Below, one piece after another: positions 7,611 through 39,462 of a stretch of DNA of 40,790 nucleotides. Positions within the stretch are counted from its first letter, which is position 1, and each line of letters begins with the position of its first letter. Source of the DNA: a virus. The notes beneath the pieces were generated by a model. The model made no database searches. It was not told the DNA's origin and saw only the letters and a program-made list of their open reading frames with translations. The translations under genes were made by a program, and so were the position numbers. The stretch lies in the UHGV virus genome UHGV-0115898, one strand, 5' to 3'.

Positions 7611-7937
7611 TCAAATAAGTGGTTTGCTGCCTAATTTCATTTTCTGGCGACCAACACAAGTCACACCCATTTCACTGCGTGGCTTGCTGTACCATGTGCG
7701 CTGATTCTTGCGCTCAATACGTTGCAGGTTGCTTTCAATCTGTTCGTGGTATTCAGCCAGCACCGTAAGGTCTATCGGATTCAGTGCGCTTTCTACTCGT
7801 GATTTCGGTTTGCGATTCAGCGAGAGAATAGGGCGGTTAACTGGCTTTGCGCTTACCCCAACCAACAGGGGATTTGCTGCTTTCCATTGAGCCTGTTTCT
7901 CTGCGCGACGTTCGCGGCGGCGTGTTTGTGCATCCAT
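7611..7937 (-). CDS. N: Antiterminator N (108 aa)
   Basis: MDAQTRRRERRAEKQAQWKAANPLLVGVSAKPVNRPILSLNRKPKSRVESALNPIDLTVLAEYH... matches lambda N including the arginine-rich motif; ORF-track extension to 8027 uses an upstream TTG. Confidence 0.92.
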   Translation of the reverse strand: MDAQTRRRERRAEKQAQWKAANPLLVGVSAKPVNRPILSLNRKPKSRVESALNPIDLTVLAEYHEQIESNLQRIERKNQRTWYSKPRSEMGVTCVGRQKMKLGSKPLI

Positions 7938-8047
7938 CTGGATTCTCCTGTCAGTTAGCTTTGAGTAACGCGCCGTGATGCTTATCTCCACGGTTGCTGT
8001 CTTGCAGCTGCATTTCGCGCTACTCAAAGCCTTCTGCTTTGAATGCT

Positions 8048-8078
8048 GCCCTTCTTCAGGGCTTAATTTTTAAGAGCG
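8048..8078 (-). promoter_or_regulatory. nutL site (boxA CGCTCTTA and boxB GCCCTGAAGAAGGGC on minus strand)
   Basis: Reverse complement of 8071-8078 is CGCTCTTA; reverse complement of 8048-8062 is GCCCTGAAGAAGGGC; located between pL and N. Confidence 0.85.
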
Positions 8079-8109
8079 TCACCTTCATGGTGGTTAGTGC
8101 GTCCTGCTG

Positions 8110-8150
8110 ATGGCTAAATAGTACGATTTGTACTTTATCGAGTCAATACA
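8110..8150 (-). promoter_or_regulatory. pL-type early leftward promoter with overlapping operator palindrome AGTACgatttGTACT
   Basis: Minus strand TTGACT - 17 nt - TACTAT; 15-bp palindrome at 8120-8134 lies over the spacer and -10. Confidence 0.55.
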
Positions 8151-8207
8151 AAATGTTCTAAATATAATTAGTTTTTTATAACACTTTGTATTTAATGGGT
8201 TTATATT

Positions 8208-8240
8208 TTGGAAAAAGAAAACCCGACGCTAAGGTCGGGT
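8208..8240 (-). terminator. Putative intrinsic terminator downstream of cI
   Basis: Minus strand ACCCGACC-ttagc-GTCGGGT hairpin followed by TTTCTTTTTCC, about 30 bp after the cI stop; lambda has rexA/rexB here. Confidence 0.5.
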
Positions 8241-8271
8241 TATTGTTGTGTGTTTTAGAGTTGTGAGGCTG

Positions 8272-8931
8272 TTAACTAAATGTCTCTTCAGGCCACTGGC
8301 TGGCGATAACTTTCCCTACTACGGAACAGCTATCATTGCATGGAATCATTGGATATTGCGGGTTTAGTGGCTGTAGGAACACCTGACCGCTATCCCTGAT
8401 CAGTTTCTTGAAGGTAAACTCGTCACCACCAAGTCTGGCTATGCAGAAATCACCTGGCTCAACAGCCTGCTCAGGGTCAACGAGAATTAACATCCCGTCA
8501 GGAAAGCTTGGCTTGGATCCTGTTGGCGCGGTCATGGAATTACCTTCAACTTCAAGCCAAAAAGCACAATCACTGGCTTTTTTGGTTGTGCTGACCCATC
8601 TCTCCGCATCACCTTTGGTAAAGGTTCTAAGCTCAGGCGAGAACATCCCGGCCTGAACATGAGAAAAAACAGGGTACTCATATTGTTTTTTAACGGGGGC
8701 AGATGAGTATTCGCCAACAGGTGAAAATGTACCGTCGTGGTTGAATGAGACGTTATCAATACCAAGGTATTTAAACACCACACCAATCTCGTCAAGAGAT
8801 GGATGACGAGATCCGCGCAACCAGTGACCAATTCCACCCTGCGTCATACCAAGCTCTTCAGCTAACTTCTCTTGAGTTATGCCGAGCTCTTTCATTCTGG
8901 ATCTAGCCAGTTCATACCATTTCATTTTCAT
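8272..8931 (-). CDS. cI: CI-type immunity repressor: lambda-like LexA/S24 C-terminal domain, non-lambda N-terminal HTH domain (about 219 aa from ATG at 8931; alternative ATG at 8925)
   Basis: C-terminal ~140 aa ([38 protein letters not shown]...[14 protein letters not shown]...FTFKKL...) matches lambda CI including the Ala-Gly cleavage site and Ser/Lys dyad; N-terminal ~80 aa differ. Confidence 0.88.
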
Positions 8932-9043
8932 ACCCTTATTATTACGCTCTGTACTAAAACCATCCATGCACAAGATGTATTTTTTTGTTTGCATTCTAAA
9001 AGTACATATCGTATTATTGTTTCATGGTTACTATGGAGGGCAT
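8932..9043. promoter_or_regulatory. Divergent cI-cro control region (oR-type operators, pR candidate TTGCAT-17-TATTAT, pRM region)
   Basis: Operator-like half-site pairs at 8941-8955 (atTACgctctGTACT) and 9001-9015 (AGTACatatcGTAtt) resemble the oL palindrome; -35 at 8989-8994 and -10 at 9012-9017 upstream of cro. Confidence 0.5.
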
Positions 9044-9259
9044 ATGAGCAACCTACGAAAATATCGAGAGTCACTGAATATCTCTCAAACAACACTTGCT
9101 AAGGCAGTTGGATGCACACAGGGAGCTATCGGACATTGGGAATCTGGTCGTCGCTTCCCAGACCTTAAAACATGCCGTGCTCTTGTTGAGTGCCTAAACA
9201 AGTTAGGCGCAAAAGTCAGTCTTGATGACGTGTTCCCGCCGGAACACAAAGCCGCTTAA
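9044..9259 (+). CDS. cro: Cro-like HTH regulator (71 aa)
   Basis: ATG at 9044 preceded by GGAGGG; helix-turn-helix ISQTTLAKAVGCTQGAIGHWESG; divergent from cI. Confidence 0.8.
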   Translation: MSNLRKYRESLNISQTTLAKAVGCTQGAIGHWESGRRFPDLKTCRALVECLNKLGAKVSLDDVFPPEHKAA

Positions 9260-9267
9260 GACATTCC

Positions 9268-9299
9268 CGCTCTTACACATCCCAGCCCTGAAAAAGGGC
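9268..9299 (+). promoter_or_regulatory. nutR site (boxA CGCTCTTA, boxB GCCCTGAAAAAGGGC)
   Basis: Exact boxA at 9268-9275 and boxB hairpin at 9285-9299 between cro and cII. Confidence 0.85.
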
Positions 9300-9378
9300 A
9301 TCAAATTAAACCACACCTATGGTGTATGCATTTATTTGCATACATTCAATCAATTGTTATCTAAGGAAATACTTACAT

Positions 9379-9672
9379 ATGGTTCGTGCAAACAAACGCA
9401 ACGAGGCACTACGAATCGAGAGTGCGTTGCTTAACAAAATCGCAATGCTTGGAACTGAGAAGACAGCGGAAGCTGTGGGAGTTGATAAGTCGCAGATCAG
9501 CAGGTGGAAGAGAGACTGGATTCCCAAGTTCTCAATGCTGCTTGCTGTTCTTGAATGGGGTGTCGTTGACGACGACATGGCTCGATTGGCACGACAAGTT
9601 GCTTCGATTCTCACCAATAAAAAACGCCCGGCGGCAACCGAGCGTTCTGAACAAATCCAGATGGAATTCTGA
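9379..9672 (+). CDS. cII: Transcriptional activator CII (97 aa)
   Basis: [51 protein letters not shown]... matches lambda CII; ATG at 9379; ORF-track start at 9319 is an upstream extension. Confidence 0.95.
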
Positions 9673-9704
9673 GGTCATTACTGGATCAATCCACAGGAAT
9701 CATT

Positions 9705-9851
9705 ATGACAAAACAACTCAGTCCTTACCAGGACAAAATTCACAAACACATACTACGTGATCGCTTCCTGTCCAGCTTCAAGCAGCCTGGTCGATTCCGG
9801 GCTGAGTTGGAAAAAGTGAAGCTGATGCAGAAGGAGAAAGGTCATGAGTAA
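9705..9851 (+). CDS. Small ORF (48 aa) between cII and the replication initiator
   Basis: ATG at 9705 preceded by AGGAA; basic 48-aa product; stop overlaps the O-like start; below the ORF-track threshold, found by reading the DNA; P22 has an orf48 at this position (from memory). Confidence 0.45.
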
Positions 9852-10811: not shown

Positions 10812-12692
10812 ATGACTCCAAGTGAACTCAGTGACCTGCTTTGGGCGCAGGTTGACAGGGTGGCTCCGCACCTGTTGCCAAACGGCAAGAAAGAGGGGCA
10901 TGAGTGGGTTGCCGGTAACGTCAACGGTGACAAGGGAAACAGCCTTAAGGTCAACCTTAGCGGCAAGAAAAAATGGGCTGATTTCGCTGAGGGAGACGGC
11001 GGTGACATGCTTGATTTGTGGATGGCATGTCGTGGAATTAACCTGCATCAGGCTATGCAGGAAGCGAAAGCCTTTCTCGGAATCAAGGATGACGATCACC
11101 ATTTCGATGCCAAACGTGAGAAGAAATTCTCCAGACCTGACCGCAAGAAAATCGCCCGCTACGTTACCAGAACAGAATCCCATCTTGAGTACCTGCAATC
11201 GCGTGGCATATCGCCAGAAGTCGTAAAGCGCTACGAGGTTGTCAGCGGCAAGGTGTGGAATGGAGAACGAGAACTTGATGCACTGGTGCTTCCGTACAAA
11301 CGCGATGGTGAGTTGTTGCAGGTCAAGCGAATCAGCACTGAGCGCCCGGACGGGAAGAAAGTCATTATGGCAGAAGGTGATTGCGAACCTTGTCTGTTCG
11401 GATGGCAGGCTCTGGACGCTGGCGTGAGGGCGGTTGTACTTTGCGAAGGCGAAATTGATTGTATGAGCTATGCGCAATACGGCATCTCGGCGTTATCCGT
11501 GCCGTTTGGTGGCGGGAAAGGCGCTAAGCAACAGTGGATTGAGTTTGAGTATCACAACCTCGACAGGTTTGAGGAAATATTCATCTCGATGGACGTTGAT
11601 GATGTTGGTCGTGAAGCCGCAAGGGAAATCGCAAGCCGACTCGGTGAACATCGTTGCCGTCTTGTTACTCTGCCGTACAAAGACATCAACGAATGCCTGA
11701 TGAACGGTGTTACCGAGGATGAAATCTGGCAGTACATCGGCACGGCATCCTACTTCGATCCTGAAGAACTCTACAGCGCGCGAGAGTTTTACCAGGACAC
11801 TATCAACGCTTTCTACGGCAAGCAGCAGTATCTGTTTAATCCACCGTGGGAATCTCTGGCAGATAAATTCCAGTTCCGTGAGGCCGAGTTGACGCTGGTC
11901 AATGGTGTGAACGGTCACGGAAAAACGGAGGTTGTCGGGCATATGGCTCTTGAGGCAATGCGTCAGGGTGTGAAGACGTGCATCGCGTCACTTGAGCTGA
12001 AGCCTGGTATTCTCCTTAAGCGCCTTACCCGTCAGGCGACGTGCTGCAAGATGCCGCCAGTGCTGGAAATTGACTCTGCATTTAAATTTTATGACGAAAG
12101 ACTTTGGGTGTTTGGTCTGACCGGAACGGCGAAAGCCGACAGGCTGATCGAAATATTCGACTACGCTCGCCGCCGATACGGCATCCAGTTATTCATCATC
12201 GACAGCCTGATGAAATGCGGCATAGGTGACGATGACTATAACGGGCAGAAAGCATTTGTTGACTCGATTTGTGACTTCAAAAACAAAACAAACTCCCACG
12301 TCATTCTCGTTACTCACTCCAGAAAAGGAGATAGCGAAGAAAAACCAACCGGGAAAATGGACGTAAAAGGCTCTGGAGCGATAACAGACCTGACAGACAA
12401 CCTTTTCATCATCTGGCGTAACAAGGCTCGCGAGAGAGCGTTACAGAGAGTTCAGAGTGGTGAAAAGATGTCAGAGAAGGACGAACAGCTACTGGCATCT
12501 CCGGCATCTGTTTTGATGCTTGAAAAACAACGTAACGGCGAAGGTTGGGAAGGTGGTGTCCCGTTGTTCCTTGACGAGCAATCGCACCAGTTCCTGCAAC
12601 TTGAATCAGGATCGCCATATAGCTACATCGCCAATATGCCGAAATCGGAATATGACGAGGCGTGGAGACAGGAAAACGTGACGGAGTATTAA
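10812..12692 (+). CDS. Bifunctional DNA primase/helicase (TOPRIM-type primase N-terminal domain, DnaB/RepA-like P-loop ATPase C-terminal domain), 626 aa
   Basis: Walker A VNGVNGHGKTE, Walker B-like LFIIDSL; N-terminal region with acidic TOPRIM-like VLCEGEIDCMS; occupies the lambda P / P22 gene 12 position. Confidence 0.8.
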   Translation: MTPSELSDLLWAQVDRVAPHLLPNGKKEGHEWVAGNVNGDKGNSLKVNLSGKKKWADFAEGDGGDMLDLWMACRGINLHQAMQEAKAFLGIKDDDHHFDAKREKKFSRPDRKKIARYVTRTESHLEYLQSRGISPEVVKRYEVVSGKVWNGERELDALVLPYKRDGELLQVKRISTERPDGKKVIMAEGDCEPCLFGWQALDAGVRAVVLCEGEIDCMSYAQYGISALSVPFGGGKGAKQQWIEFEYHNLDRFEEIFISMDVDDVGREAAREIASRLGEHRCRLVTLPYKDINECLMNGVTEDEIWQYIGTASYFDPEELYSAREFYQDTINAFYGKQQYLFNPPWESLADKFQFREAELTLVNGVNGHGKTEVVGHMALEAMRQGVKTCIASLELKPGILLKRLTRQATCCKMPPVLEIDSAFKFYDERLWVFGLTGTAKADRLIEIFDYARRRYGIQLFIIDSLMKCGIGDDDYNGQKAFVDSICDFKNKTNSHVILVTHSRKGDSEEKPTGKMDVKGSGAITDLTDNLFIIWRNKARERALQRVQSGEKMSEKDEQLLASPASVLMLEKQRNGEGWEGGVPLFLDEQSHQFLQLESGSPYSYIANMPKSEYDEAWRQENVTEY

Positions 12693-33702: not shown

Positions 33703-34241
33703 AATTGTATACCGAGATAGGCAAGAACAGATGGATGTATATCAACAAGCTTTTCGCCAAGATGTTCTGTTGGAGGTGGATAATCTTTGCCTTGGTTTCT
33801 TACGGTTATAGGCATAGTTGTTGCTGGATGAAACTCAACTATCATAGGGTCGCCTTCGTATTTTGCTATTTTCCCTGTTGAATCAATGATTAACTCTTTA
33901 ATATAATGGCTTCTTGCTCCCGGAAATGCCCCAAGAGTAGTATAAGGAGGTTCAAGTTTTGAGATTTCCATAGTGGAATGATGATCAGCATTTCTTGCTT
34001 GGTGAAGGTAAGCAAGTGTTTTGTCTGTTTTTCTAAGCATGAACTTTTGGTTGAAGTGGCTGCTAAATTTTCCACTAACCGGCTTTGTTGCACAGAGCAA
34101 CTTACTGAAAGACTTTTCTATATGCCCAAGACATTCTCGCCAGTGCATTTCAAAATCATCATGGTTTGTAGATGATTTCATCTGCTCTAGGCACTTTTTA
34201 GCTGCGATGATTTCTTTTTTTGCTGGGTTGTAATCGATCAT
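33660..34241 (-). CDS. Hypothetical protein (193 aa) translationally coupled to mnt
   Basis: ATG at 34239-34241 overlaps the mnt stop (ATGA) with AAGGA 6 nt upstream; AT-rich; no recognisable domain. Confidence 0.6.
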   Translation of the reverse strand: MIDYNPAKKEIIAAKKCLEQMKSSTNHDDFEMHWRECLGHIEKSFSKLLCATKPVSGKFSSHFNQKFMLRKTDKTLAYLHQARNADHHSTMEISKLEPPYTTLGAFPGARSHYIKELIIDSTGKIAKYEGDPMIVEFHPATTMPITVRNQGKDYPPPTEHLGEKLVDIHPSVLAYLGIQFYEKWIDESCATFR

Positions 34242-34492
34242 TTTGCATCCTTGCCATACATGTTTTTAAGTGTCTCAAATACCACAGACTTGAACTGTTC
34301 AGCCTGCATCTCGGCTAATCGTTCAGCTTCATTGCGATAACCTTTTACAGGAGATGGTCTCGATAGAGCATCTTGGACGATTTGCAACAATTCTGAGTTC
34401 ATTGATCTACCATTTGACTCTGCTCTGTATTTTAATTTTTCTCTTACTTCCAAAGGCATGCGGAAGTTAAAGTGCGGATCATCTCTAGCCAT
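34238..34492 (-). CDS. mnt: Mnt repressor (ribbon-helix-helix), 84 aa
   Basis: MARDDPHFNFRMPLEVREKLKYRAESNGRSMNSELLQIVQDAL... matches P22 Mnt. Confidence 0.93.
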   Translation of the reverse strand: MARDDPHFNFRMPLEVREKLKYRAESNGRSMNSELLQIVQDALSRPSPVKGYRNEAERLAEMQAEQFKSVVFETLKNMYGKDAK

Positions 34493-34514
34493 GCCATCAC
34501 TCCAAGTTAGTGTA

Positions 34515-34566
34515 TTGACATGATAGAAGCACTCTACTATATTCTCAATAGGTCCACCGTGGACCT
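34515..34566. promoter_or_regulatory. immI control region: Pant (TTGACA - 17 nt - TATATT), Arc operator (atgatagaagcactctactat) and Mnt operator palindrome (AGGTCCACCGTGGACCT)
   Basis: Perfect 17-bp palindrome at 34550-34566; Arc operator-like sequence at 34520-34540; consensus -35 at 34515-34520. Confidence 0.8.
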
Positions 34567-34582
34567 ATATTGTGAGGTGAAC

Positions 34583-34744
34583 ATGAAAGGAATGAGCAAA
34601 ATGCCGCAGTTCAATTTGCGGTGGCCTAAAGAAGTATTGGATTTGGTACGCAAGGTGGCGGAAGAGAATGGTCGGTCTGTTAACTCTGAGATTTATCAGA
34701 GAGTAATGGACAGCTTTAAGAAGGAAGGGCGTATTGGCGCGTAA
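34583..34744 (+). CDS. arc: Arc repressor (53 aa)
   Basis: [53 protein letters not shown] matches P22 Arc with two or three conservative differences. Confidence 0.95.
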
Positions 34745-34812
34745 AGTTGAAGCCCCAACTGCGGGAACAGTCAGGGCTTCTGTTGTCAGTAAATTCGTGG
34801 AGAAAAACCAAC

Positions 34813-35715
34813 ATGAATAGTATAGCAATTTTAGAAGCAGTGAACACCTCTTACGTACCTTTCAATGGTCAGCAGATTATCACCGCCATGACTGCCGGAG
34901 TTGCATATGTTGCGATGAAGCCAATCGTTGAAAACCTTGGAATGAGCTGGTCAACGCAGCAAACAAAACTCATGAAGCAGATTAGCAAATTCAACTGTGT
35001 TCATATGAACATGGTTGCCGCTGATGGTAAGCTTCGTAGGCTACTCTGCCTTCCTTTGAAGAAGTTAAATGGATGGCTGTTCAGCATCAACCCTGAGAAA
35101 GTTCGTGCTGACATCCGCGATAAACTGATTCAGTACCAGGAAGAATGCTTTACTGTGCTGCATGACTACTGGACGAAGGGAAAGGCAGAAAATGCACGTA
35201 AGAAAACATCTGTTGATGACAGGACTCCGCTTCGTGATGCTGTAAATATGCTAGTCAGCAAAAAGCATCTAATGTACCCAGAAGCTTATGCAATGATTCA
35301 TCAGCGTTTCAACGTGGAAAGTATTGAAGAGCTTGATTCATCTCAGATACCGCAAGCAGTAGAGTACATCCACAGGGTAGTGCTTGAAGGCGAGTTCATC
35401 GGCAAACAAGAGAAGAAAACCAACGAGCTTTCTGCAAAAGAAGCAAACAGCCTTGTATGGTTATGGGATTATGCCAACCGCTCACAGGCATTATTCCGCG
35501 AACTGTATCCGGCGCTAAAACAAATTCAATCGAACTATTCCGGCAGATGCTACGACTACGGTCATGAGTTCTCGTATGTTATCGGAATGGCGAGAGACGT
35601 TTTAATAAACCACACGCGAGATGTTGATATTAATGAGCCAGACGGACCAACGAATCTTTCCGCATGGATGAGACTTAAGAATAAAGAATTACCTCCTTCA
35701 GTACATAACTACTGA
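34813..35715 (+). CDS. ant: Antirepressor Ant (300 aa): P22 Ant-like N-terminal domain, different C-terminal domain
   Basis: [40 protein letters not shown]... and [28 protein letters not shown] matches P22 Ant; the C-terminal half does not. Confidence 0.85.
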
Positions 35716-35758: not shown

Positions 35759-35815
35759 TGCCCAAAATTCACCGTAGCCATGCTGCGGCGATTCCTTGTA
35801 TCTGGAGCAAATTAA

Positions 35816-37972
35816 ATGACAGACATTACAGCCAATGTGATCGTATCGATGCCTTCGCAACTCTTCACTATGGCTCGTTCTTTTAAAGCCGTAGCCAATG
35901 GCAAAATTTATATCGGTAAAATTGACACTGACCCGGTAAACCCTGAAAACCAGATTCAGGTTTATGTGGAGAACGAAGACGGCTCTCACGTTCCTGTTTC
36001 GCAACCAATCATCATTAACGCTGCTGGTTACCCGGTATATAACGGACAGATTGCCAAGTTCGTAACTGTGCAAGGCCATTCTATGGCTGTTTATGATGCA
36101 TACGGTGTGCAGCAGTTCTATTTTCCTAATGTGCTGAAGTATGACCCGGATCAGTTTTCTGCAGAATGGCTTGCCAAGATGTCTGCGCCTGATTCTTATG
36201 CATTATTTGGTACATTCTCATCAATAGCAGATCTACGAGCATTTACTGCATACTCATCAGTTAAGGAAAATGGAAGAGTCTATGTTGATTCTTATCACCT
36301 TGGAGCTGGTTATGGCGGAGGATATTTCCGCTGGAATTCAACTAGCACTGATACTGATGACGGTGGCTATACCATTAACCCAACTGGCAATACTGGAACA
36401 GGACGCTGGAAGCGAGAGATATCCTCTGCGTATGTCGCAAGGACGGTGAGTCCGTTGGAGTTTGGGGCAAAAATTAACGATAGTACTTTCGACTGCGCGC
36501 CAGCTATCAATGCGGCTATTTTATATTTGAATCCTTATCTTGATTCCTCATATGATTCTCATCAGGGTGGAGATATTGTGTTGCCAGCAGGGCAGTTTTA
36601 TATTAATGACACTATATACGGCTCTCCCAATGTCAGGGTGCTGGGAACTGGCGGCACTCCAGGGTTCAGATATTCTAGGTCTGGGTGTTCTGTTATTGTC
36701 GCAATGCCCACAATGGATCTCATGAAAATTATGTATGATACCGCCCCGTGGTTGACAGACGGCACATCCAGATACACTAATACAAACGAGATGGTTTACG
36801 GCAGAACGGAAAGTCAGGGATACTATGGGACCTACATTGAGAACATAGTTTTTGTTGGAAATGCAGATCAACAGTGCGGAGTACGTATCTGGCGAGTTCC
36901 ATGCTCCACTCTCAAAGGTGTTGCAGTCTACTCCTGTAAAGTAAGTTTCTGGGTAAATGGTTCGTGGGATGTGATGCTTGATAATTGCTTCTCATATGGC
37001 GCGAAGTACGCCACAATTTTGCCTTATCAAATTACATCGCTTCGCATAGTAGGCGGCTATTATACAGGAAATACTGCACAACTTTATTCTATGGGGACTG
37101 AACAGTGGTTTCATCGAGCGATAGATGAAACTAACAAGCCAAACATTGCTTATGTAACTACTTTCATGTATGCATATAACAGTTTTGATATAAATCTGTA
37201 TGGCGTAACAATAGAAGGGTACAACAGAGAGTTTGCTCTTTTTTATTGCGGCAATGTTAATATGTTTGGTGGGTATACAGAATGGATTGGAGTACCTGCA
37301 AGCGAGACAGGGCATCGTGTTTTTGTGCATGGTGTTGCCTCAGAGTTTTATTCAACAGGGACATACTTTAATCACGACATTAAAGATCTGGCGGTGCAGT
37401 CAGGGAATGTTTTTGACACTACTTCAGGAGAATACCTCCCATCTGAAAGATCACGAGTGATAATTGAAAATCCAAGAGTGGTAACAAAATTCCAGAATCT
37501 TACTAAAGATTTAGGATATGGCTCCTACAATATTGTCATAAAAAACCAACACCCTATCACAGATAGCTTATCGACTACACTTTCAGCGCAGAGGCTTTTT
37601 ACAGTTCAATTTGTTGGATTGCTAGACCAGTATACAATGCGAACTCCTGCTGTAACTGCAAATGGTACAGTGAGCTTTAGTATCCAGATTGGAAATATTG
37701 CAGATGGAGGTGAGTATAGCGTTAGGCTTTTGATGAGAAACACCGCATCCACTGTACAGCAGGATTTAAGATTTACAGTGTTGGTAGGAACAACAACAAC
37801 TGTTACTGGCTACCAGGGACGCTCGAAGGCTGGGACCACATTAATACCAGCACCCACAGCAACATTCACTGGTAGCACATTAACTCTTACTTTCACAGGT
37901 AATTCAGGTTATTATTCATTCTTCAGAATGAAGTGCGTGCCTGTAGAAGATCAACATATTTATACCTATTGA
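35816..37972 (+). CDS. Tailspike protein: conserved P22-family N-terminal head-binding domain, distinct beta-helix receptor-binding domain (718 aa)
   Basis: First ~115 aa ([11 protein letters not shown]...[34 protein letters not shown]...[13 protein letters not shown]...NVLKYDPDQ) match the P22/Sf6/HK620 tailspike N-termini; rest is Gly/Tyr/Thr-rich. Confidence 0.9.
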
Positions 37973-38027: not shown

Positions 38028-39462
38028 CAAAATCAACAATCAAAATGCTATCCTTGATATAGGAATTTAGCCATTGCCCCTGAAAGGATAGGTTACCTTC
38101 ACATTTATGTGAAATGTAATTTTTAGCCTTGTTTGCTGGCATGTATGTATTCTTTATCCCATTAAATGACATGTACGCACTTCCCCAATACCAGTTCCAG
38201 AAGTAATCTGTGACTGAATAGTTTATCAAAGGAAAGTTTAATGCTGCATTTTTTACAGCTTCGGATCTTGGTGCTGTGCCGGTAAACACAATGCTAACAT
38301 TATCACTACCAGCGTCGCGAATGGATTGCATAATTTCAGAAAGAACTACTTTATTTATCCTTTCCTGAGCCTTCAAAGCATTTCCGTATACATACATTAA
38401 AATCATAGAATACAATACGGGTATTAATGTAATTGATGTTACGTATCTATGTTCTTTAAAGCAATAATATAGCAATGTACTCATGAGGACATAAAAAACT
38501 CCAACCGACATGTATAAGTGAACTCCTCCCAATGGGTTGGCGAGAACCAGCAATGCCCCCATAGTCATTGGCATAGCGATTGCTGTTGCGAGTATCGCTC
38601 CAGTTATAACGTTAAATACTTTCCAGTTTAGGCCTTTACATTTAACGTATTTGTAACTCAGAAACGCCGTCATAATAATGCAAGCTAAAGCTGACAGGAG
38701 TAATAATTCACCACCGACAACCCTGTAAAAATTTGTAGAAGCAAAATCGTAATACTTTAAGCTGTTATTCTTTAGTGCCCCTAATATATCATTTGATATT
38801 CTTGGGTGATTAGATGAATAATGCCCGCTAAAAGTTATGGGTAATATGAATTTCACGTATATCATACCACCTACTAAAACCTGCATTATACGTAATGCAA
38901 CCCTTTTAAGTATTAACTGCGGGTCAGTAAATCTGGCCATGTTAACTATTACTTCACATATTAATAAAATCGCAACGACATTAATGACTGCCTGATAAGT
39001 GCCAAGCACTATCACTACAAATGCGGTGCCTATTATTAATTCATGAACCAGTCTTTTGCACTTAATTGCAAAGAGAGCAAATGCAGATGCAATGGAGAAA
39101 CTGAAAGTTAAAACATCAAACCGATAAGAGAACATTGATATAATAGCTGGATTCGCCATGAATGCCAGAGGTATAATAAAGCTCCATTTTCCCCCATCAA
39201 GAAACCTCTTTCTGTAACATGCAAAAGATATTGCAAGCAGCACAGAAGCAAGAATGATTGGTAGAGGTGCAAGATCGACGATTCTGGAGCTAAGATTGAG
39301 AACTGACATTACTATATCAGCTACAGGCCTCCCGTCCACACCCCATTTAGTATAACCAACAGTCGTTCGCCCAATATCATCAACATAAAATTGGTTTGCT
39401 AGGATAATTGGCAATATAAATATAAAAATAACATACGAGTAACGTTTTGAGTTGTTAATCAT
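38008..39462 (-). CDS. gtrC: GtrC-type serotype-specific O-antigen glucosyltransferase, polytopic membrane protein (484 aa)
   Basis: Multiple hydrophobic TM segments, AT-rich, located 3' of gtrA/gtrB with overlapping start. Confidence 0.8.

Follow-up and report, generated by a model that had tools for sequence, protein, structure and literature searches.

Probable assignment of the immC region of the P22-like coliphage genome UHGV-0115898 to the VT2-Sakai/Stx2-II immunity type

Introduction

Among the lambdoid phages that carry Shiga toxin (Stx) genes, VT2-Sakai (Sp5), Stx2-II and the Stx1-converting phage of strain Morioka share an immunity type that was sequenced in 1999-2003 with annotated putative operators. 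The subject here is the immC region, at 8110-9259, of the virus genome UHGV-0115898, a stretch of 40,790 nucleotides that was analyzed whole and is called the window below. This region is most probably the lysis-lysogeny switch (immC) of a temperate, P22-like coliphage with VT2-Sakai/Stx2-II-type immunity, a reading to which we give a probability of about 0.9. It is backed by the genes and their domains, by six conserved sites, by matches to promoters and to a terminator, by the junctions of the mosaic and by the identity with the known type. As a textbook-style lambdoid switch, it holds little discovery value. Its practical relevance lies in the fact that the same repressor-operator set governs induction of the Sakai-type Stx2a prophage.

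In the record of the Stx1-converting phage of strain Morioka V526 (AP005153), three right (OR) and three left (OL) putative operators are annotated, together with the promoter pR and a putative maintenance promoter. Smith et al. (2012; PMC3430580) described the variant as cI2c/cro4, with a carboxy terminus in common with lambda CI and the amino terminus of lambda standing alone as unique. OR1-3 and OL1-3 were predicted in Sakai-type Stx2a phages by Yin et al. (2015; PMC4587872), and Sedhom and Solomon (2023; PMC10742460, Table S1) give six 17-mers as VT2-Sakai operators. The literature found on the Sp5/VT2-Sa repressor is made up of typing studies, predicted operators and electrophoretic mobility shift assays (EMSAs) with lambda CI, and the operators are called putative throughout.

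Comparison with the VT2-Sakai/Stx2-II type

Four E. coli phages, vB_EcoP-720R6, vB_EcoP-683R2, Dewey and Louie, are 99.2-99.4% identical to a 1271-bp region of the window. Over the cI-cro part, the identity to many Stx phages, including the Morioka Stx1-converting phage, Stx2-II, Nil2, 2851 and the PA series, is ~93%, and a more sensitive search gave 94% DNA identity over 8680-9259 to VT2-Sakai, Stx2-II and 1717. Of 5426 complete E. coli genomes, 786 (~14%, about one in seven) carry the segment 8683-9265. At the protein level, CI is identical to the CI of the Stx1-converting phage at 212 of 218 residues (97%) and Cro to its Cro at 70 of 71 (99%), with the helix-turn-helix (HTH) unchanged in both.

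The likeness extends to the layout. In VT2-Sakai (Sp5), Stx2-II, the Morioka Stx1 phage, Nil2, 2851 and 1717, pR, PRM, pL and the operators stand at positions homologous to those in the window, and CI has the same lambda-like C-terminus. The six window operators are homologous, site by site, to the published VT2-Sakai sites VOR1-3 and VOL1-3 and to the operators in AP005153. Judged by sequence, the CI head, Cro and the six-operator set would all place the window in the VT2-Sakai/Stx2-II (cI2c/cro4) type.

There are also differences. Nucleotide divergence from these Stx phages is ~7% overall, and the OL region is only 77-81% identical. OR1 and OR2 are 32 bp apart in them but 34 bp apart here. 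The flanks there carry an HK97-like N and an HK022-like cII, whereas the window has the N/nutL and cII of lambda. A 173-aa gene lies between OL and cI in those phages, where the window has only a terminator, and the window genome is that of a P22-like podophage without stx.

The six putative operators

The operators are 17-bp pseudo-palindromes whose half-sites, of consensus A(G/A)TAC, enclose a 5-bp spacer; they are grouped at 8119-8193 (OL) and 8940-9016 (OR). On the left, OL1 (TAGTACGATTTGTACTT, 8119-8135) has perfectly palindromic half-sites, AGTAC/GTACT, and its homologue among the published VT2-Sa sites is the OL1 TAGTACGATATGTACTT. OL1 is followed by OL2 (CAATACAAAATGTTCTA, 8144-8160), which fits the pattern with one mismatch, and by its inverted-repeat partner OL3 (TATAACACTTTGTATTT, 8177-8193); both are homologues of the VT2-Sa operators of the same names. 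On the right are OR3 (TATTACGCTCTGTACTA, 8940-8956), with a core identical to that of VT2-Sa OR3, OR2 (ATGCACAAGATGTATTT, 8966-8982), which is a putative operator in AP005153, and OR1 (AAGTACATATCGTATTA, 9000-9016).

The pattern ARTAC-N5-GTAYT, with at most one mismatch, has four matches in the window against 2.5 expected, a count that is not above chance; all four fall inside the control regions, at 8120-8159 and 8941-9015. The assignment therefore relies on location, on an independent weight matrix and on conservation. The matrix was symmetric, was made solely from the six published VT2-Sakai operators, and thus from another phage, and was scanned over the whole window. Its top five matches were OL1 (20.5 bits), OR1 (18.2 bits), OL2 and OL3 (16.2 bits each) and OR3 (15.0 bits), while OR2, the weakest of the six, came eighth with 11.0 bits. 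Shuffled sequence gave a mean maximum of 13.3 bits. Two further candidate operators, at 2738-2754 (13.3 bits) and 2488-2504 (11.2 bits), were dropped as equal to the shuffled-sequence level; they lie 250 bp apart within the early-left genes.

Conservation was assessed in seven phages with this immunity region. Variable columns made up 4 of 60 in the half-sites and 43 of 140 in the rest of the control regions (Fisher p ~1e-4). The operator differences among the relatives are mostly within the 5-bp spacers, and the DNA between operators also varies. For OR2, the half-sites TGCAC/GTATT are conserved in the relatives, and the spacer is AAGAT here as against AATGT in the Stx phages.

A preliminary description of this region had proposed three palindromic operators, flanking pL and pR. 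The palindromes are there (AGTACgatttGTACT at 8120-8134, (AT)TACgctctGTACT at 8941-8955 and AGTACatatcGTAtt at 9001-9015) and correspond to OL1, OR3 and OR1, but the full set is six, and OL2, OL3 and OR2 had been missed. Nor do the sites flank the promoters: OL1 and OR1 overlap the spacer and the -10 of pL and pR, and 8941-8955 is OR3, over PRM. An unbiased repeat search recovered the pairs OL1/OR1 (20 nt, 90% inverted repeat), OL2/OL3, OR3/OR1 and OL1/OR3. A named type with operators unlike those proposed would have spoken against the description; instead, the putative operators of VT2-Sakai, Stx2-II and Stx1-Morioka are the proposed three plus three more. Rfam and tRNA scans added nothing inside the immunity region.

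Promoters and geometry

The region has the architecture of a lambdoid switch, with a putative PRM and a divergent pR served by three operators, pL by another three, cro after pR and N after pL. The promoter scan found pL on the minus strand at 8118-8146, with a -35 TTGACT (8146 to 8141), a 17-bp spacer and a -10 TACTAT (8123 to 8118); the lambda-homologous transcript start is 6-7 nt downstream of the -10. On the plus strand, pR was read from the sequence at 8990-9018, with a -35 TTGCAT (8990-8995), a 17-bp spacer and a -10 TATTAT (9013-9018). The scan reports it as TTTGCA-18-TATTAT (8988-9017), with the same -10 and a shifted -35.

A candidate PRM occupies 8931-8966 on the minus strand, with a -35 TGGATG (8966 to 8961), a 17-bp spacer and a -10 AATAAT (8943 to 8938). 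Reading toward cI, the minus strand thus presents OR2, TGGATG, 17 bp containing OR3, AATAAT, 6 bp and the ATG. The cI mRNA made from this promoter would be leaderless, its first base being A8931 of the ATG or one close to it. Lambda has the same arrangement, a leaderless cI mRNA from PRM with OR2 upstream. The candidate coincides with the "putative maintenance promoter" of AP005153.

The cI gene has two in-frame ATGs in this interval (8925-8937), at 8931 and 8925. A Shine-Dalgarno-like run, AAGGG, stands 1 nt ahead of the first and 7 nt ahead of the second, and in the Nil2 record the second ATG is annotated as the cI start. It may be speculated that translation starts at the first ATG on leaderless PRM transcripts and at the second on PRE transcripts.

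The placement of OL1 in pL and of OR1 in pR is identical: each begins at spacer position 7 and runs into the -10. The -35 of pL is overlapped by OL2, and the spacer and -10 of the candidate PRM by OR3. OR2 abuts the PRM -35, with its center 43 bp upstream of the cI ATG. Center-to-center distances are 25 bp for OL1-OL2, 33 bp for OL2-OL3, 26 bp for OR3-OR2 and 34 bp for OR2-OR1, as compared with 24/20 bp (OL) and 23/24 bp (OR) in lambda.

Downstream of cI, an intrinsic terminator lies on the minus strand at 8214-8249, ~30 bp after the stop codon, with a stem running from 8241 to 8220, followed by TTTTCTTTTT. The terminator scan gave it an 8-bp stem with five GC pairs and a T-run, and found it terminator-like on both strands. 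The stem-loop and T-run beyond the cI stop codon agree with the earlier statement that the terminator follows cI directly and that rexAB is absent. Because rexAB is absent, OL and OR are separated by 0.8 kb rather than the 2.3 kb of lambda.

The CI and Cro proteins

The cI gene (8272-8931, minus strand) encodes a 219-aa protein with an N-terminal HTH_3 domain spanning residues ~1-83 (Pfam match at residues 12-59, E 8.3e-11; recognition helix TQGGIGHW) and a full-length Peptidase_S24 domain (Pfam, E 9e-29). In protein alignments, CI resembles lambda CI only weakly over its first ~83 aa and is almost identical to it between residue 84 and the C-terminus, much as had been described (a lambda-like C-terminus with a different N-terminal ~80 aa). 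The C-terminal domain is ~98% identical to that of lambda CI. Ala94-Gly95 in the linker, Ser132 and Lys175 align with the lambda cleavage site and catalytic dyad (Ala111-Gly112, Ser149 and Lys192 in lambda numbering). With its HTH head, S24 domain, Ser/Lys dyad and Ala-Gly site, CI is a predicted LexA/CI-type repressor, and RecA-stimulated autocleavage would be expected of it. The HTH region can still be aligned with that of lambda CI, and the Gln that opens the recognition helix is conserved. Among solved structures, the head finds only distant relatives, in weak matches to the lambda repressor N-terminal domain (1lli, 1lmb), P22 C2 and 434.

Cro (71 aa, 9044-9259, plus strand) is an all-helical HTH_3 protein (Pfam, E 1.4e-12) with the recognition helix TQGAIGHW. 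Even with E values up to 100 allowed, it could not be aligned with lambda Cro, in line with the preliminary description of a different Cro. Its nearest solved chain by sequence search is 28tn_A, an uncharacterized "lambda repressor-like protein", followed by P22 C2. Cro and the CI N-terminal domain share 35% identity (E 5e-13), and with the common motif TQG(G/A)IGHW this marks the two as paralogues. As in 434 and P22, such paralogy leads one to expect a common set of sites for the CI head and Cro.

Mosaic junctions and comparison with lambda

The order of elements is that of lambda: N, pL with OL1-3, terminator, cI, PRM with OR3-2-1 and pR, cro, nutR and cII. The junctions with lambda DNA were mapped by BLASTN. 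On the left, the N gene (7611-7940, minus strand; Pfam N36) lies largely within a match to lambda N at 7636-7963, and the pL leader with nutL (8025-8112, minus strand; boxB hairpin at ~8048-8062) is 98.9% identical to lambda 35496-35583. The lambda homology stops at 8112, exactly at the pL start point. It resumes at the terminator, which is 89% identical over 8214-8249 to lambda 35799-35834, just downstream of rexB (tImm), and again in the 3' half of cI (8278-8682), with 93.6% DNA identity. The right flank (9266-9712, plus strand), with nutR, the tR1 region and cII, is 97.3% identical to lambda 38247-38693. A repeat search paired the arms of the nutL boxB with the nutR boxB at ~9284-9297. The cII gene (9379-9672, plus strand; Pfam Phage_CII, 1.7e-48) contains in its 5' end, as read from the sequence and compared with lambda, the PRE motif TTGC-N6-TTGC. 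Taken together, nutL, the tImm-like terminator, nutR and cII/PRE share 89-99% DNA identity with lambda, and the PRM proposed here is likewise of the leaderless type.

What is not lambda is confined to two patches, 8113-8213 with the left operators and 8683-9265 with the repressor head, the right operators and cro. None of the marks of lambda immunity was found there, that is, a lambda-type CI head, a Cro of the lambda fold or lambda-type operators. The CI N-terminal domain is only weakly similar, Cro is an HTH_3 protein and not of the lambda Cro fold, and the operators follow A(G/A)TAC-N5-GTA(C/T)T, unlike the TATCACCGC-type 17-mers of lambda. The window is a clean natural case of modular exchange, with two short specificity patches within lambda-identical control DNA, in a P22-like phage.

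In having a repressor head and a Cro that are paralogous, all-helical HTH_3 domains reading the same operators, the region resembles the immC regions of 434 and P22. However, the similarity of the head is marginal (E 0.006-0.4), and the C-terminal domain here is that of lambda. The operators are unlike those of either 434 or P22.

A model of the switch

From these features, a mechanism can be proposed. In the lysogen, CI dimers would bind the six 17-bp operators through the HTH_3 head. OL1 and OL2, which cover the -10 and -35, would serve to repress pL, and OR1, which covers the spacer and -10, to repress pR. CI bound to OR2, beside the weak PRM -35, may activate synthesis of the leaderless cI mRNA, with OR3, lying over PRM, shutting it off at high CI. 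Since the C-terminus is ~98% identical to that of lambda CI, lambda-like dimerization, cooperativity and autocleavage are to be expected: the C-terminal domain would support dimerization and both pairwise and long-range cooperativity, the latter across the 0.8 kb between OL and OR, and RecA-stimulated self-cleavage would take place at Ala94-Gly95 by the Ser132/Lys175 dyad. In lytic growth, Cro, with nearly the same recognition helix, may bind the same operators and lower PRM and the early promoters. Lysogeny would be established through the lambda-type cII/PRE system on the right. Operator binding, the order of affinities, PRM activation, cooperativity and homoimmunity with VT2-Sakai-type phages are all inferred here.

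Variation among relatives

The slot between OL3 and cI (8194-8271), which holds only the tImm-like terminator here and rexAB in lambda, is filled differently in relatives with the same immunity type. In the Stx phages it contains the gene for the 173-aa protein, of unknown function (L001 478-999), in 2B8 and E212 a 285-aa NYN-domain protein (L006 1108-1965) and in phi458 a 348-aa unknown protein (L007 1703-2749). It looks like a hot spot for morons or defense genes.

Klebsiella phage phiKp_30, a sewage isolate, has lost most of cI. The deletion lies between OL2 and the cI 5' end, so that OL1 and part of OL2 are joined directly to the start of cI, OR and cro (L009 2392-2888). It also has base changes in a half-site of OR3 (ATTAC to ATTGC), in a half-site of OR2 (TGCAC to TGCAA) and in the OR1 spacer. 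The phage looks like a naturally virulent derivative of VT2-Sakai-type immunity. Loss of cI with changes in the OR3 and OR2 half-sites is what would be expected of such a derivative, which supports the reading of the region as a switch.

Alternative readings

Several points weigh against the interpretation as a VT2-Sakai-type switch. OR2 scores below two chance-level matrix matches elsewhere in the window. It does not overlap the -35 of pR, as it does in lambda, and its center-to-center spacing from OR1 is 34 bp here and 32-33 bp in the relatives; with OR2 off the -35 and a variable spacing, lambda-style cooperativity between OR1 and OR2 is not guaranteed. The generic promoter scan missed PRM, which was read by eye, because its -35 is weak, as expected of an activator-dependent promoter. 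The accessible literature on the Sp5/VT2-Sa repressor yielded neither biochemical nor genetic proof that the cognate CI or Cro binds these operators. There is also a second-hand statement, attributed to Fattah et al. (2000) by Sedhom and Solomon (PMC10742460), that VT2-Sa and lambda are cross-immune.

The spacing between OR1 and OR2 varies with the length of a T-run between OR2 and the pR -35 (8982-8990 in the window, with homologous runs in L001, L006, L007 and L008), and it is therefore 32, 33 or 34 bp. This variation would be surprising if OR1-OR2 cooperativity strictly needed a fixed helical phase.

With 32-34 bp between OR1 and OR2, the switch might be cooperative in a manner unlike that of lambda. 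As the C-terminal domains are ~98% identical, it is also conceivable that CI forms mixed dimers or oligomers with a lambda-type CI in cells that carry both prophages. We regard this pair of ideas as unlikely, though less so than the alternatives that follow. If true, mixed oligomers would link two prophages, formally heteroimmune, in their stability or induction, and they could account for the old, odd report of VT2-Sa/lambda "cross-immunity", as it is relayed second-hand. Cooperativity unlike that of lambda would then operate in a widespread switch that controls Stx2 production in O157:H7 Sakai-type strains.

It is rather less probable that true operators are limited to the strong sites OL1 and OR1, perhaps with OR3, the other three being fortuitous, A/T-rich near-matches in a switch simpler than that of lambda. 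The 11 bits of OR2, below the chance-level match at 2738-2754, would fit this, as would the two mismatches in one half-site each of OL3 and OR2. The variable OR1-OR2 spacing speaks against a tight cooperative pair, and phage 933W has only two OL sites (PMC8065619). However, the half-sites of OL2, OL3 and OR2 are kept across diverged phages in which the neighboring bases and spacers change, and the matrix ranks both OL2 and OL3 within its first five matches in 40.8 kb. OR2 is exactly where an activating repressor must sit, beside the PRM -35, and one of its half-sites is among those altered in phiKp_30.

More improbable still is that the region confers what is effectively lambda immunity, or cross-immunity, with shared recognition-helix residues letting each repressor act on the other's operators. 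Its specificity, by sequence, is predicted to be distinct from that of lambda. The second-hand statement of cross-immunity favors the opposite and, if it is right as relayed, the specificity would not be fully distinct. In EMSAs, lambda CI shifts VT2-SA operator oligonucleotides with an apparent dissociation constant of 3.7-6.4 uM (PMC10742460, Table 1), but lambda OL1/OR1 are bound 10-30 times more tightly in that assay, and since the VT2-SA values are similar to those for unrelated Stx2-I sites, the binding looks non-specific. Smith et al. (2012; PMC3430580), for their part, concluded that this cI variant and lambda CI differ in how they bind DNA. The HTH regions align and the Gln of the recognition helix is conserved, and identical C-terminal domains could permit mixed oligomers, but the N-terminal domains that would contact DNA are only weakly similar. 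Finally, a lambda-operator matrix, which gives 13.7-22.6 bits for true lambda operators, gave the six sites between -12 and +0.2 bits, and it found no hidden lambda-type operators, its score staying at or below 3 bits throughout the control regions. Together with the breaks in DNA homology, these low scores uphold the central claim of the preliminary description, namely, a lambda-type regulatory chassis with another DNA-binding domain, another Cro and AGTAC-N5-GTACT-type operators.

The last alternative, a new and undescribed specificity that arose when lambda recently recombined with an unknown phage, would suit flanks (N/nutL, the cI 3' half and nutR/cII) that are 93-99% identical to lambda around a core without lambda homology, which a reader without databases could not name, but it is already refuted: the same core, with identical HTH regions, is in VT2-Sakai, Stx2-II, Stx1 (Morioka), Nil2, 2851, 1717 and many other records, it is present in the 786 E. 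coli genomes counted above, and the hybrid CI and putative operators were already described in GenBank annotations and in PMC3430580, PMC4587872 and PMC10742460. This hybrid immunity region is an already described, common type, without the novelty that the preliminary description had implied.

Genome context

The window is the genome of a P22-like (Lederbergvirus-type) phage that combines P22-like virion genes with lambda-like early genes. It encodes a lambda-type integrase (50-1120), a Rad52-family annealing protein and a single-stranded DNA-binding protein (SSB).

In addition to immC, the window carries a P22-type second immunity region, immI (mnt-arc-ant-sar), at 34238-35715. It consists of Mnt (34238-34492, minus strand), Arc (34583-34744, plus strand), the sar antisense RNA (34745-34812, minus strand; Rfam, 91 bits) and the antirepressor Ant (34810-35715, plus strand; Pfam P22_AR_N/C). 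Since immI with Ant is present, CI is probably under antirepressor control as well.

To the right of immC, a 48-aa DUF2740 open reading frame (9705-9851) lies between cII and the gene for the O-like initiator. In the replication module (10812-12692), this lambda O-like protein is paired with a Toprim/DnaB-like primase-helicase and not with lambda P.

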